NCBI GenBank assembly: GCA_038320545.1
Contig: JBBQEI010000004.1
Coordinates: 75,613-139,612, forward strand
Source: Bacteroidales bacterium
GTDB taxonomy: Bacteria > Bacteroidota > Bacteroidia > Bacteroidales > JAAUTT01
Direction: 5' to 3'
DNA: 64,000 nt
A model generated the notes under the pieces. The model was not told where the DNA came from and did not search any database. It worked only from the letters and a program-made list of their open reading frames with translations. Below are positions 43,615 through 49,145 of the stretch, one piece after another (position 1 is the first letter of the stretch; each line of letters starts with the position of its first letter). A program made the translations under genes and the position numbers.

Positions 43615-44823
43615 TCACATTATTTGTAAATACACTTCCTTTAAAAATTTCTCTTCCAGCAGTCGAGCAATCCTTTTTGCGACTGTTCGTCGTATTTCCA
43701 GCTCACGAGGCACTTTTGGATCGTGATGCGCTGGATTTATTCGTGTTCCGATTAAAAAATGAATTTCGTCCGATTCGAGTAACATGTTTACTACCTGATG
43801 AGCTGGTCCTTTTCCGGTTGGCATGGCAGGATTATGATCTTTTAAAAGGTCGTGAACTTTACTTAAAGTCAGAATTCCTTCTGTGAGCAGGTCAATACCT
43901 TCCATAAACGATATGGGAGGCAGATCAGGATCATCAAATTGTTGGCCTTCTGTTATCTTTAAGCCTAACTGGCTCGAAATAATATCCCCTGTGGTGGCGC
44001 CGCAAATAATTTTTTGTCCATTAAATTCTTTTACAATTTTCGCCATATCGGAATCACTAAACTCTTCATATGGCGGACCACTGCATAACAAAAGCCGTCG
44101 TGGATGCCGAAGGTAAATAGTGGCACACGAAATGTCATCTTCAGCTTTATAGTTATCGTTCTGGTAAGCCAGGCTGACAAGTTTTCCTGCAATTTTTCTC
44201 GCCGAAATGGATGTATCGGTATCGATTAATTTACCAAGGTAAGTTTTTATGTTTTCCAATCCCCAGCCCACAGGATATTTGACTGTTCCGGTACCCGACT
44301 GATAAATTCCATCGCTGAAAAATATTATCCTGTCCTCGAGCTGCGATTTAAAAGAACAAGTCCTGATTTCTTTACCCGCATTTTTATGGCTGGTAAGAAT
44401 AATACATTGCCACTCGGGTTCAAATATTTGGTTGCCACGATAAATCAGGCATTCAGGGTTACCATATTCAAGAATATGAGTTGTACCATCATATTCAATA
44501 TTAACAATAGTGAAGGTGGAATAACTAAGGTTACGATCGCTGCATACAGGCAGTGTATTCATAATTATTTCGGCAATGGTATTCGGGTCCTCATGTTCCA
44601 TGGTAAACCGCATGGCCATCGTTGAGGTTAAGGTTGCTAATATATTGGCTTTCACTCCATGTCCCATTCCATCCGAAAGAATGGCTATTACCCTGTTTTC
44701 TTCTGGGATACGTTTAGAAAGAAATACATCGCCACAAATTCTTTCACCATTATGGTTCCGTTGCTGACAATGAACTTCAATATAAAAACCTTCGATTACA
44801 ACTGTTTTAGTTGTTTTTACCAC
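43615..44823 (-). CDS. SpoIIE/PP2C-family protein phosphatase with an unassigned C-terminal domain
   Basis: ICGDVFL, ILSDGMGHGVKANILATL and FFSDGIYQSG. The GTG start at 44821-44823 immediately follows the stop of the upstream hydrogenase-like gene. Confidence 0.8.
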   Translation of the reverse strand: MVKTTKTVVIEGFYIEVHCQQRNHNGERICGDVFLSKRIPEENRVIAILSDGMGHGVKANILATLTSTMAMRFTMEHEDPNTIAEIIMNTLPVCSDRNLSYSTFTIVNIEYDGTTHILEYGNPECLIYRGNQIFEPEWQCIILTSHKNAGKEIRTCSFKSQLEDRIIFFSDGIYQSGTGTVKYPVGWGLENIKTYLGKLIDTDTSISARKIAGKLVSLAYQNDNYKAEDDISCATIYLRHPRRLLLCSGPPYEEFSDSDMAKIVKEFNGQKIICGATTGDIISSQLGLKITEGQQFDDPDLPPISFMEGIDLLTEGILTLSKVHDLLKDHNPAMPTGKGPAHQVVNMLLESDEIHFLIGTRINPAHHDPKVPRELEIRRTVAKRIARLLEEKFLKEVYLQIM

Positions 44824-46704
44824 TTATAATGAGTTTTTAGTGTTCTTATCTTTCGAATTGTTTCCTTTGTACATTTCTGAAATTGAATTTAGCATTTGCT
44901 CGGTGTCGGCAGCGGTTTCGCCAAGTAAAAAACCAATTTTCTGAACCATTTCAAGGTTTTTGCCAATTACTTCGTCAATGCGGTTTAAAACTTCATCTTT
45001 TCTTAATTCAGGTGAATTTATATCAGCTATTACAGCACCTACTATTGAATTTTCCCGGATAGAAAAAACGGAAATATTATAAAGCTCTTCATTGTAATGA
45101 ATATCACGCTTTTGTATGTCTTCTCCGTTGAGTAATACATACGAAAAAAGATTGTAAATATTAAAAGGTAACAGTTTTTTTATATCAGCTCCGGCGAGGC
45201 CCGGAATTATTTCGTTTATTTCGGCCGCATCTGGTCCAAGAAATTTTATAAAACTTTGGTTCACTTGTAATATTTTTAATTTTTCGTTCACAATTACAAG
45301 GCACGAAGGTAATTTTTGCAACATAGTTTCCATGGTTACAAAGGCTTGTTTAGCTAGTTGTTGTTCGCGCCGGGCGGCATTTTCCGATTCCCTGAGAGCG
45401 TCTTTTGTTTCTTCAAGTTGCTGGTTTATTTGCTGTAATCGTTGAATTGAATTTTGCCTGCTGCGAACTGCATGGGTAATACACATTTCAGTTGTAGTTA
45501 ATCCTTTCACGACATTAGTGGCAAAATCGTAGCATGAATTGTATCCACAGGCACCACACCCCTGGTTGTCGCTGAATTCATTTTTGCCCATTTCTTTCAT
45601 TACCTCCCTGATTTTATCTTTTGGAGGTTGCGAAATACGCTGATCGTCGGCAATAAACGATGCTGAATAATCTAACTGGAGGTAACGCCTGGTTTCTTTT
45701 TCCCATTCCCGTTTATTGAAATTACTCATTCGCTTATTGGCATAATTTACAACAAGCGTACGGCGGAAAAACCTGTCGCCACCACGAGAAGTCCCGGGTC
45801 CCATAATGCAGCCATGATCGTAAAAAATATTGAAGTGCCTGTTTATAACCAGCGGATGATCCGAAAACTCTTTCACAGCCTTAACCATCGAACTTCTGCC
45901 TTCAGCTGTATAAACAGTACCGGTTAAAAGTTCTTCACTAATGTTTGCAGCTTGCAAAAACCCTGTGCTTATTGGATAAAGTGACCCTTTTCGTCCATAT
46001 GGAGGATCAAAATCTCCTACTTCATGTTTGCCTTCAGTAATGCCGAATTCTTTAAAAAGTTCTCTCAATTCTTTGAACGTAAGAACAGCATCAATTTTCG
46101 ATTCATCTTGATGTCGTAAGGCTTCTTTTTTATTGGCAATGCACGGGCCAATGTATACTATGCGGATATCCGGCCCATATTTCTGATGCATTACTTTGGC
46201 TGAAGCGATCATTGGGGTTACAATAGGTGCCAGATTTGGAATGAGTTCCGGGTAATATTTTTCGATGTAAAAAATGAGTGCAGGACAATTTGCAGTAAAA
46301 TAATATTTGCCTTTGTTGTTTTCAAACAGTTCAGCATATTTTTGAGCGATGATGTCGACCCCGAATGAAGCTTCATTTACATAATGAAAACCTAGTGCCC
46401 TGATCATTTCAACAAATTTACGGTAATCGGTAATGTCGGAAAATTCTCCTGAAATGCTGGGGCCAACTATGGCAACAACTTTATTGTCCGATTTTAAAAT
46501 TCTTTTGGTTTCTTCTTTAGAATTATGATAAACTACTGCTTCCGGGCCGCATACTGTAACACAACTACCACAGCCAATGCAACGGTTATGCAATATTTTT
46601 GGAAAGTCGTCCGTTAAATCCATTTTAACAGCTTTAACAGGACAAACCCTGACACATGCATGGCATTTTACACATTTGGTATTGATAATTTCAATCAAGT
46701 TCAT
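44824..46704 (-). CDS. Sensory [FeFe]-hydrogenase-like protein (2x 4Fe-4S ferredoxin motifs, H-domain-like region, Cx2Cx4Cx16C, PAS-like C-terminus)
   Basis: CVKCHACVRVCP and CIGCGSCVTVCG. TANCPAL / GPCIANKKE / DHGCIMGPG sit at the positions of H-cluster motifs L1/L2/L3. CGACGYNSC-x16-C, a coiled coil and PAS-like LVIVNEKLKILQVNQSFIKFLG follow. Confidence 0.75.
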   Translation of the reverse strand: MNLIEIINTKCVKCHACVRVCPVKAVKMDLTDDFPKILHNRCIGCGSCVTVCGPEAVVYHNSKEETKRILKSDNKVVAIVGPSISGEFSDITDYRKFVEMIRALGFHYVNEASFGVDIIAQKYAELFENNKGKYYFTANCPALIFYIEKYYPELIPNLAPIVTPMIASAKVMHQKYGPDIRIVYIGPCIANKKEALRHQDESKIDAVLTFKELRELFKEFGITEGKHEVGDFDPPYGRKGSLYPISTGFLQAANISEELLTGTVYTAEGRSSMVKAVKEFSDHPLVINRHFNIFYDHGCIMGPGTSRGGDRFFRRTLVVNYANKRMSNFNKREWEKETRRYLQLDYSASFIADDQRISQPPKDKIREVMKEMGKNEFSDNQGCGACGYNSCYDFATNVVKGLTTTEMCITHAVRSRQNSIQRLQQINQQLEETKDALRESENAARREQQLAKQAFVTMETMLQKLPSCLVIVNEKLKILQVNQSFIKFLGPDAAEINEIIPGLAGADIKKLLPFNIYNLFSYVLLNGEDIQKRDIHYNEELYNISVFSIRENSIVGAVIADINSPELRKDEVLNRIDEVIGKNLEMVQKIGFLLGETAADTEQMLNSISEMYKGNNSKDKNTKNSL

Positions 46705-46856: not shown

Positions 46857-49145
46857 ATGAAGAAGACCTTTGTATTTTTACTTTTCGTTCATTTAACTGC
46901 AGCATTCTCATTCTCGCAAAGTTACGATCGTAAATTTATACGTGAATTTACCATTAAAATTGATACGGTACATTATGAATTATCGAAAAATACAATTGTT
47001 CAGAATAATGAAAGCAGGTTGTATTTTAATTTTCAAAGGGAAGACGATGTTTGCGAATTAAATCTTTATCCTGCTGATAAAGAAAAAGTTAGTAATTTGA
47101 AATTATTAGGATCATCCGATTATATTCAGCTCGATTCCATTGTTTTTGTTCATGATGAATATTACAGGATTCGGTTGCGGTTTATAAATTTGTTCAAAAG
47201 CCAGTTTATAAATTTGACTTTCTCCGCCACAATTGTCGGTGCTGAAACTCCTGTATTGGAAGAAATAAAGTTATTGCCATATACAAAAACCAAGGTGGCT
47301 TTTGGACTGATAAGCGATGAATTATTTTTAGGTGAAGAAAAAGTATTTGAACTTACTACAAATAATCTTAAAAATATCAGGTTAACGAACGAATGGGTCA
47401 GCGACCGGGATATAAATTACAGGGTATTGGAGGAAAATGGTAAACTTATGGTGCACCTTATCCCCAATTTGCCCGATATCAGGGAGGTTAAAATTAAACT
47501 TCAAACCTACATTCCTAATTTGGTGGACGACAAAAAAATAGTGTACGATTTGCCCGAAGTCACTCAGAGTTTTAAAGTAAAAACGAGTCGTTTGGCATTT
47601 CTTAACCTGGATAAACAGGAATTAACCTTCGACGAAAAATCTAAAATAAATGGAATCGAGGTTCAAATGGACAATAACCGGCAGTTGGTAATTGGCAAAA
47701 CGTACAGGCTCGAAAATCAGGAACAACCAGGGGGTGCTTTAATTGCCGAATTGTTTACAAAAAGCAGTTTAACGAACGACAAGGTATTGTGCATCTTCCG
47801 TCCGTTTAATTTTCACCGGAAAACTGAAGGATATTTATACATAAAGGAAGGCGACAATTCTAAGTTTATAACCAATTGCGACATTACTCCTAAAACTACA
47901 ATTACTAATATAATGGTTATGCATGAGGGTGAAGATTGGTCGACGAACCTGAATGTTTATCCCGGCGAAACGGTGAATGTAAAAATGGAAGGCGAAGGTT
48001 TACATAAAGCACGTTTTCATTGGGAAGATCTACTGGATTTGACATCTGATACTGTTATCCGCAGCGAAACCAGCTCTTCATTCCAGCTTAAAGTGCCCAT
48101 AAATATTACCAAGAAAAAAATAAACCTTTATAATGGAGCCAATAATACTGGTACTACACTCAATGTAAGAGAGTACCAGGTACCAAGAAAAATGGATTAC
48201 ATAAGCCTGAACTTTGGTACTGGTAACAGGGTACTTTCTTCCATTGCACCAATTATGATCCAACGAAGTACCATTAACGACATAACTCTAAACTTCGATT
48301 ACAATAAAATTGATTCGGAAAGTAAGTTATATGGAAAGCAATATTTTGATATTGATGTAAAAATTCTGGGAAAAAGAGGCGAGTTAATCGAAATGAAAAA
48401 CATCAAAAACATTTTGGTTTGTCCGGGTGAAAACTCTCCGCGATTTGTTTATTACAAAGATAAATCGGCAGTTTCGACGTCCATTAGTCTGAATAGTCTC
48501 ATTGGCTACAAAACCTACAATATGGAGGATTTTTCCAGGGTTCAGTTAAATTTTCGGAATCCCGATGAAAAATATAATGGTTCGGGATACGAAAAACAAA
48601 TCGAAATTGTATTGCAGCGCCCTGTTATATTCGATATTGATGTTTCATTCCCGGCAGGTTTGATGATACAGAACCTGGGAAAAACCAAAGCTGAAAGAGA
48701 AAGCATTGAAAAATATGGTACAGATAAAAATTTATATAACCAAGAAAAAATAGCCTATACAAATGAATTGGAAATTTGGAATAACAATCATGTAGGGCCA
48801 AAACCTGTTTTGTCAATGGAAGAACCCGTTGAACCTCAGAAAGCGAAGTTTACCGATAATTTGGGAGGTGTGAGCCTTGCCTTAATTGCTCAGTTTAGTT
48901 TTCCCGATGCCGAAAAGGTAGGACGATTAAAGCCTTATCGTTTGGGAGCAGGTTTTTTGGCTATCAATACTTTCAACTTCAGCGATAATGCTAAAAGAGA
49001 TCTGGCAGCAGTTATTCTGGCCAGTTTATATCCCATAAAACCAGGCCGAATTTTCAACATGCCTATTCATATCGGAATTGGTTATAAATTTCAGGATGCC
49101 CGGCCATTTCTTATGCTAAGCCCTGGAATAGGGGTGAGGTTTTAA
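46857..49145 (+). CDS. Large secreted hypothetical protein, possibly outer-membrane anchored
   Basis: Signal peptide (MKKTFVFLLFVHLTAAFSFSQ). 762 aa with no family I recognise. The C-terminus is rich in alternating hydrophobic residues and ends ...GIGVRF. Confidence 0.6.
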   Translation: MKKTFVFLLFVHLTAAFSFSQSYDRKFIREFTIKIDTVHYELSKNTIVQNNESRLYFNFQREDDVCELNLYPADKEKVSNLKLLGSSDYIQLDSIVFVHDEYYRIRLRFINLFKSQFINLTFSATIVGAETPVLEEIKLLPYTKTKVAFGLISDELFLGEEKVFELTTNNLKNIRLTNEWVSDRDINYRVLEENGKLMVHLIPNLPDIREVKIKLQTYIPNLVDDKKIVYDLPEVTQSFKVKTSRLAFLNLDKQELTFDEKSKINGIEVQMDNNRQLVIGKTYRLENQEQPGGALIAELFTKSSLTNDKVLCIFRPFNFHRKTEGYLYIKEGDNSKFITNCDITPKTTITNIMVMHEGEDWSTNLNVYPGETVNVKMEGEGLHKARFHWEDLLDLTSDTVIRSETSSSFQLKVPINITKKKINLYNGANNTGTTLNVREYQVPRKMDYISLNFGTGNRVLSSIAPIMIQRSTINDITLNFDYNKIDSESKLYGKQYFDIDVKILGKRGELIEMKNIKNILVCPGENSPRFVYYKDKSAVSTSISLNSLIGYKTYNMEDFSRVQLNFRNPDEKYNGSGYEKQIEIVLQRPVIFDIDVSFPAGLMIQNLGKTKAERESIEKYGTDKNLYNQEKIAYTNELEIWNNNHVGPKPVLSMEEPVEPQKAKFTDNLGGVSLALIAQFSFPDAEKVGRLKPYRLGAGFLAINTFNFSDNAKRDLAAVILASLYPIKPGRIFNMPIHIGIGYKFQDARPFLMLSPGIGVRF

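Follow-up and report, generated by a model that had tools for sequence, protein, structure and literature searches.

We analysed a 64,000-nucleotide stretch of DNA (hereafter the window) from a Bacteroidales bacterium (GenBank assembly GCA_038320545.1, contig JBBQEI010000004.1, positions 75,613 to 139,612 of the forward strand), which encodes on its reverse strand a HydS-like sensor (P0001) related to [FeFe]-hydrogenases. The gene (44824..46704 (-)) is an intact open reading frame that translates into 626 amino acids (aa), and directly downstream of it, with no intergenic gap, lies the gene of a 402-aa partner protein (43615..44823 (-)) with a PP2C phosphatase domain. Judged from sequence, the sensor belongs to a large PAS-linked clade of the Bacteroidales that derives from group C, or HydS-type, [FeFe]-hydrogenases, and one of the four cysteines that would hold the [4Fe-4S] part of the H-cluster ([4Fe-4S]H) is replaced in it by an aspartate, Asp296. 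What appears to be new here is a natural and conserved Cys-to-Asp replacement at an H-site ligand in a large Bacteroidales HydS-like family.

The sensor consists of two [4Fe-4S] ferredoxin motifs, an H-domain, a Cx2Cx4Cx16C motif, a long helix and a PAS-like domain, in this order, and its cysteines lie at residues 11, 14, 17, 21, 42, 45, 48 and 52, at 140, 188 and 299, at 383, 386, 391 and 408, and at 468. The N-terminal ferredoxin domain (46537..46695 (-)), recognised by Pfam Fer4 families and the Cys positions, has eight Cys in two CxxCxxCxxxCP-type motifs and is predicted to bind two [4Fe-4S] clusters. The H-domain, with the fold of an [FeFe]-hydrogenase large subunit, spans residues 75-312 (45769..46482 (-)): the Pfam family Fe_hyd_lg_C (PF02906) covers residues 75-282 (E 1.9e-41), the alignment of NCBIfam FeFe_hydrog_B1 (TIGR04105) extends to residue 305, and phmmer matches HydA structures, with L2 aligned to 8a6t. 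An AlphaFold2 (AF2) model (81 homologues) has a mean predicted local distance difference test score (pLDDT) of 81, above 90 in the H-domain, and the top Foldseek matches of the model are the [FeFe]-hydrogenases DdH, CbA5H, HydABC and CpI (E 1e-21 to 1e-18). The Cx2Cx4Cx16C motif (C383, C386, C391 and C408; 45481..45558 (-); PF04060, E 8.7e-8) marks an accessory [4Fe-4S] site. After a long helix (residues 405-464) follows a PAS-like domain at residues ~458-560 (45025..45333 (-)), called from weak Pfam matches, both under the gathering score (PF13426 (PAS_9), E 0.0026; PF00989 (PAS), E 0.0087), and from the AF2 secondary structure of residues 466-561, which is PAS-like with a five-strand sheet and flanking helices. 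Precomputed PAS matches are present in some of the sensor homologues.

Residue equivalences at the H-site were taken from MAFFT L-INS-i alignments of the sensor with two group A paralogues of its own genome and 150 family representatives, the latter found by searching 1.84 billion clustered proteins. Motif L1 reads TANCPAL (residues 137-143; 46276..46296 (-)), where C140 corresponds to the ligand C300 of CpI and N139 stands at the proton-relay Cys299. Motif L2 reads GPCIANKKE (residues 186-194; 46123..46149 (-)): C188 corresponds to C355, N191 takes the place of the Lys holding the distal cyanide (CpI K358, CrHydA1 K228; L2 Cys+3), a Lys is found one residue further on, at +4 (K192, paired with K359), and the salt-bridge Glu E361 is present as E194. 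Motif L3, HFNIFYDHGCIMGPG (45793..45837 (-)), includes the stretch YDHGCIMGPG (residues 295-304), in which D296 corresponds to C499 and C299 to the bridging C503, with a one-residue deletion between them. The pairing of Asp296 with CpI C499 and CrHydA1 C362, the first L3 ligand, comes from alignment with the paralogues and with 123 Lys-bearing representatives, and translation and alignment place its codon, GAT, at 45817..45819 (-), where the fourth cluster Cys would be encoded. Further pairs are G186 with CpI M353, N292 with the Glu of ExMxC and F294 with CpI M497. Three of the four Cys ligands of [4Fe-4S]H (CpI C300, C355, C499 and C503) are thus present, and the C499 site is Asp296.

The original prediction, made from the letters alone, had claimed that the H-domain holds only three cysteines, in TANCPAL, GPCIANKKE and YDHGCIMGPG, that the fourth Cys ligand is lacking and that the first Lys of L2 is Asn. 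Translation bears out the count (C140, C188 and C299, with no other Cys between the ferredoxin motifs and Cx2Cx4Cx16C), and the alignment puts Asp296 at C499 and N191 at K358, leaving the canonical cyanide-anchoring Lys absent. It was also right that the proton-relay Cys is Asn (N139 at C299). However, this is no peculiarity: groups C and D, which share the N-terminal clusters and Cx2Cx4Cx16C, are generally without the proton-relay Cys (PMC8163306), and Asn139 is therefore ordinary for sensors.

Homologues of the sensor number more than 5,600 in a collection of 5.8 billion proteins. The family occurs in at least 582 species genomes, nearly all of them metagenome-assembled genomes of Bacteroidales (for example of Lentimicrobium, Williamwhitmania, Tenuifilaceae and Rikenellaceae), and about one-third of 301 sampled genomes of the order carry a full-length orthologue. 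Residue counts were taken over 200 non-identical homologues. C140, C188, C299 and K192 are invariant in all 200, as are the four Cys of Cx2Cx4Cx16C, and position 194 is Glu in 193. At the K358 site (191) the residue is T, N, A or S, with Lys in a single homologue and a residue other than Lys in 199. Position 296 is Cys in 106 homologues, Asn in 49 and Asp in 45; about half of the family thus has the conserved fourth L3 Cys that the prediction had named as a possible outcome of a proper alignment, but the window's sensor does not. The prediction had also asked how well the L3 variant is conserved, and the answer is an invariant GC[IL]MGPG, with G298, C299, G302 and G304 fixed and M301 and P303 nearly so, next to a clade-specific Asp296. 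Its proposal that the His before the retained Cys serves as a substitute ligand did not hold up, as the residue paired with His297 in the alignment is not a ligand (it is Pro in group A) and the position is Glu in 151 of the homologues and His in only 18. In the family alignment, no column has acquired a Cys or His that is particular to the Asp clade, and the Asp296 carboxylate is the sole candidate for a fourth ligand in the window's sensor. Position 14, a ferredoxin ligand, is Cys in the window's sensor and is replaced in 40% of the homologues (Ser in 74, Asn in 6).

On a FastTree topology rooted with classical HydS-like sequences, in which support is weak for the placing of a small second D/N group, the 296 column shows only four state changes and Cys is the ancestral state. 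The window's sensor lies within a clade of 42 members, all with Asp, whose sister clade has 42 members, all with Asn, and the closest homologue of the sensor (83% identity) also carries Asp in this column. Both synonymous codons are used for Asp (GAT and GAC), as they are for Asn and for Cys, which indicates that each state is kept by selection and that GAT is no error. The chance that the Cys is missing through an error of sequencing or assembly, an artefact that the prediction had allowed for, or because the gene is a pseudogene is negligible: the frame of 626 codons is intact, 45 of the 200 homologues share Asp296 and the downstream partner gene is intact. The invariant cysteines and the synonymous turnover at position 296 point to strong purifying selection on the H-site, not drift. 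Two further differences among the 296 types were seen. In the Asn296 sister clade C14 has become Ser in 41 of 49, and position 80, which adjoins the GPS loop lining the diiron site, is Cys in 76% of the Asn-type, 19% of the Cys-type and 2% of the Asp-type sequences.

Among the Lys-bearing relatives, 82 classical representatives (median 576 aa) read S-S/T-A-C-P, GPCxAKKxE and ELLAC-x-G-G-C-x-N-GP, with Ala at the proton-relay position in 66 of them, and 41 longer representatives (median 673 aa), siblings fused to a histidine kinase, have the C-x-G-C spacing with both Cys and the Lys kept. The C499-equivalent Cys is kept in 122 of 123 Lys-bearing representatives. The PAS clade of about 620 aa that holds the window's sensor has the displaced Lys together with changes in the pocket (H290 for F/L, N292 for E, F294 for L/M and Y295 for A), and all losses of the C499 Cys fall within this Lys-displaced clade, in the D/N clades and in P0122-type proteins. 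P0122 itself, which is 51% identical to the window's sensor, reads D, D, G and S where the four ligands would be. Proteins of this type retain K+4, E+6 and the C-terminal cluster motif although all the ligand cysteines are lost, and conservation of K192 and E194 is hence no evidence for cyanide binding.

The source genome encodes two group A-like paralogues, one of them with the canonical motifs TSCCPAW, MPCLAKKYE and EIMACPGGCIGGGGQP, and a 481-aa group D-like paralogue. It also encodes the maturases HydG (518 bits, on contig C24) and HydF (486 bits, on contig C3), the latter adjoining a radical-SAM HydE-like gene, all on contigs other than the window's. Across about 100 sensor-bearing genomes, 12 gave no HydG match over the cut-off, and 11 of these gave none for HydF either. 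The 11 genomes (G168, G042, G206, G090, G171, G032, G092, G147, G253, G015 and G139) are high-quality Bacteroidales genomes from six genera, one of them closed (G253), with three to six Fe_hyd_lg_C genes each, and they carry canonical hydrogenases with TSCCPAW, MPCLAKKYE and EIMACPGGC besides the sensor. Hence, co-occurrence with HydG and HydF cannot discriminate whether the sensor needs a diiron subcluster. The absence of the two maturases reflects either a different maturation or divergent maturases missed by the first filter of the search. With regard to the paralogues, a canonical group A hydrogenase (C7:1402-2271) lies ~5 kb from the 481-aa group D-like paralogue (C7:7674-8336 (-)), which reads SSFCPAIV, TPCAAKIAA and MRACDESCAGG, keeps the four Cys with Ala at the E361 position, and has Cx2Cx4Cx16C and no PAS. 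Another group A-like hydrogenase of ~590-600 aa (C26:44486-45388 (-)) has TSCSPGW as L1, with Ser at the ligand Cys300 and Cys299 kept, next to canonical L2 (MPCTAKKYE) and L3 (EVMTCPGGCIGGGGQP); this TSCSPGW type recurs in other Bacteroidales genomes (loci L088, L089, L090, L092 and L103).

The partner protein consists of an N-terminal PP2C domain of the SpoIIE/RsbU/RsbX type (44104-44784 (-); PF07228, E 1.4e-14) and a conserved C-terminal alpha/beta domain of ~160 aa seen in the AF2 model (43618-44097 (-)). The model has a pLDDT of 86 and matches SpoIIE, RsbX and RsbU in Foldseek at E 4e-14; the search used the full partner model, and the PP2C domain dominated its matches. A PP2C gene lies immediately downstream of the sensor gene in 79 of 80 species loci, the one exception being a contig end, with gaps of -19 to +282 nucleotides and full-length partners that are 53-81% identical. 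From this adjacency the two genes are putatively co-transcribed. The C-terminal domain is strongly conserved, with invariant GPP, GATT, TEGILTL and INxAH motifs. Pfam gave no match to this domain at E up to 10, and PDB profiles gave only a weak SIS-like one (phosphoheptose isomerase 3trj, E 0.037); the domain could serve the phosphatase in binding a ligand or a partner.

Where the upstream sequence is long enough, most loci carry a divergent operon of a ~570-aa hydrogenase and the HydS-histidine-kinase sibling, and in many genomes hydG lies within ~10 kb of the sensor gene. The linkage to hydrogenase genes is looser in the Asp clade, with none nearby in the window, in its closest relative (L007) or at P0012 and P0017; within the same clade, hydABC lies just downstream at P0032 and hydG upstream at L009. 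In the window, the slot where most family loci carry the hydrogenase/HydS-kinase operon is taken by a divergent gene upstream of the sensor (46857-49145 (+)), whose product is an orphan of 762 aa that has a signal peptide, and in a 78%-identical locus (L117) the same slot holds a 751-aa gene without a Pfam match. A scan for sigma-70 promoters and terminators, of a kind that is ill-suited to Bacteroidota, gave no more sites than shuffled sequences.

Our preferred reading, which we hold with modest confidence, is that the protein is a HydS-derived, group C-like Fe-S sensor with a remodelled site that signals via its PAS domain to the PP2C phosphatase. The H-site would bind a [4Fe-4S] (or [3Fe-4S]/[4Fe-4S]) cluster through the three Cys and the carboxylate of Asp296, wired to the three other clusters of the sensor, and the redox or ligation state of this cluster would be set by the reductant pool or by H2. 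From the H-site cluster the signal would reach the PAS domain by way of the C-terminal cluster and then the long helix; the PAS domain would switch the partner phosphatase, and this in turn would dephosphorylate a putative regulator of hydrogenase and fermentation genes. Such a sensor would report redox state rather than canonical H2 turnover. Given the strong purifying selection on the H-site, a cluster is most likely still bound, and we infer that Asp296 ligates it. Asp is a known type of [4Fe-4S] ligand. It is also chemically competent at this very site, as the CrHydA1 variants C362D and C362S bind [4Fe-4S] and have [2Fe] inserted, with low and H2-uptake-biased activity, which the Ala variant does not (PMC5855289). 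Since C362D accepts [2Fe], Asp alone does not exclude a diiron subcluster. On balance, we think that the canonical diiron subcluster is probably absent or bound in a non-canonical way, because K358 is lost and the pocket changed throughout the clade, because ligand loss is confined to this clade and because it has relatives that have lost all the Cys.

Several observations weigh against our preferred reading. The sister clade carries Asn at position 296; Asn is a poor Fe-S ligand, and residue 296 may thus be a hydrogen-bond partner of a three-Cys cluster instead. The bridging Cys, the GPS and TPM loops, the aromatic residue at F417, E361 and an invariant Lys next to K358 are retained, so that with HydE, HydF and HydG in the genome a diiron subcluster is possible. 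The CxxxK shift recurs in another lineage with canonical C-x-G-G-C (7 representatives) and may therefore be a functional alternative. Finally, the sensor-PP2C pair adjoins no hydrogenase gene in the source genome. Alternatively, the protein could be a genuine H2 sensor with a full H-cluster, a reading that we regard as possible though doubtful. Here, a [4Fe-4S]H held by three Cys and Asp would be bridged by C299 to a diiron subcluster made by HydEFG, Lys192 would take over the cyanide contact, and Asp would tune the cluster potential and bias the site to slow H2 uptake, apt for a sensor. The [2Fe] uptake and H2-uptake bias of CrHydA1 C362D fit such a protein, as do the invariance of the bridging Cys and of most pocket-lining positions, the conserved K192 and E194, the three maturases encoded in the genome, the close linkage of the family to hydrogenase and hydG genes, and the recurrence of the CxxxK shift where L3 is otherwise canonical. 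However, variants of K228 (K358), a residue described as strictly or extremely well conserved, block H-cluster assembly in model enzymes (PMC9516953), K+4 and E+6 are kept even where all Cys are lost, losses of Cys ligands are confined to the Lys-displaced clade, the pocket is changed clade-wide at N292, H290, F294 and Y295, and position 296 is Asn in the sister clade.

At the other end, the H-site could be empty and the H-domain a mere scaffold, with sensing left to the ferredoxin clusters, to the C-terminal one or to a ligand bound to the PAS domain; Asp296 would then mark an intermediate stage of a gradual loss that has run its course in the relatives lacking all four Cys. Those 51%-identical relatives do keep the remaining architecture, and the ferredoxin ligand C14 is replaced by Ser or Asn in two-fifths of the family. 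Nevertheless, the invariance of C140, C188, C299 and the L3 motif across Cys-, Asp- and Asn-type homologues, together with the maintenance of each 296 state through synonymous codon turnover, makes an empty site quite improbable. A further possibility is that the H-domain has been exapted as an H-cluster-free Fe-S sensor with no diiron subcluster. Its Asp or Asn would create a labile, site-differentiated iron as the sensing site, which would respond to redox state, to O2/NO or to some other small molecule by exchanging a ligand or by switching between [4Fe-4S] and [3Fe-4S], with the PP2C phosphatase as output. We consider this rather unlikely; were it true, H2 sensors would have given rise to a sensor class, widespread among Bacteroidales (at least 582 species genomes), whose members are H2 sensors no longer.

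The clade offers natural, selected variants at one ligand position, namely Cys, Asp, Asn and complete loss; in all of them the cyanide-anchoring Lys is displaced and the output is the same phosphatase. A comparison of them would test what the H-site contributes to signalling and, as a complement to the engineered C362D, how a hydrogenase cluster is tuned in nature by first-sphere O-ligation. To our knowledge, H2 sensing by HydS-type proteins is still unproven. We found no paper on Cys-deficient HydS homologues in our literature coverage, which was partial and is not proof of absence. The clade also bears on the regulation of hydrogen metabolism by fermentative Bacteroidales of sediments and digesters and, with regard to annotation, a motif check is needed before genes of this kind are counted as hydrogenases in metagenomic surveys of H2 cycling.

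HydS and HfsB are regulators linked to Ser/Thr phospho-signalling (PMC5707799). The HydS of Thermotoga maritima (group C / M2f), the HydS of Ruminococcus albus and the HfsB of Thermoanaerobacterium share with the window's sensor the two N-terminal [4Fe-4S] motifs, the H-domain and Cx2Cx4Cx16C, and have a PAS domain where the window's sensor has a PAS-like one. HydS of the T. maritima type resembles it further in lacking the proton-relay Cys, in having a small residue at M353 (Gly in the window's sensor) and in having Ser/Thr phospho-signalling genes as neighbours. In contrast, characterised HydS keeps the four H-cluster Cys and the [2Fe]-stabilising residues, whereas the window's sensor has Asp for C499, Asn for K358 with the Lys shifted by one, C-x-G-C spacing in L3 and Asn for the Glu of ExMxC, and is ~30-35% identical to the classical representatives. 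The original prediction of a divergent sensor that is not of the characterised HydS type is in line with this, given that the H-cluster Cys and [2Fe]-stabilising residues of sensory [FeFe]-hydrogenases are reported as conserved (PMC10055695).

Closer at hand is the HydS-histidine-kinase sibling (~670 aa, HydDB group C1-type), which is encoded beside most family members, is absent from the source genome and is ~41% identical to the window's sensor over residues 3-449. It has the same C-x-G-C spacing and IMGPG tail in L3 (LLCCEGCIMGPG), the N-terminal ferredoxin motifs and the C-terminal cluster motif, but keeps all four Cys and K358 (GPCIAKKDE), and its output is a histidine kinase instead of PAS and PP2C. 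The HydS of Thermoanaerobacter mathranii (group D / M2e), a type that the source genome also has in its group D-like paralogue, likewise has the N-terminal ferredoxin motifs, an H-domain with no proton-relay Cys, and Cx2Cx4Cx16C; it differs in having no PAS and in keeping all four Cys. Nar1/NARF of eukaryotes, compared by description and as a functional analogy only, has an H-domain without a diiron subcluster and a non-catalytic Fe-S role. However, it has four Cys at the H-site, is without PAS and Cx2Cx4Cx16C and acts in cytosolic Fe-S assembly, and the sensor, with its PAS-like domain, Cx2Cx4Cx16C, two ferredoxin motifs and bacterial operon with PP2C, falls outside that family. NsrR and the Fnr of Bacillus subtilis are [4Fe-4S] sensors with three Cys and one Asp, in which the carboxylate ligand gives a site-differentiated, reactive iron; their folds are unrelated and the likeness is one of analogy only. 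A parallel at the residue itself is CrHydA1 C362D (Kertess et al. 2017, PMC5855289), with Asp at the same [4Fe-4S]H ligand position. That protein is a catalytic group A enzyme with a point mutation made in the laboratory; its K228 is intact and its cluster occupancy low, whereas the window's sensor is a natural, selected variant on a sensor scaffold without the K228-type Lys.

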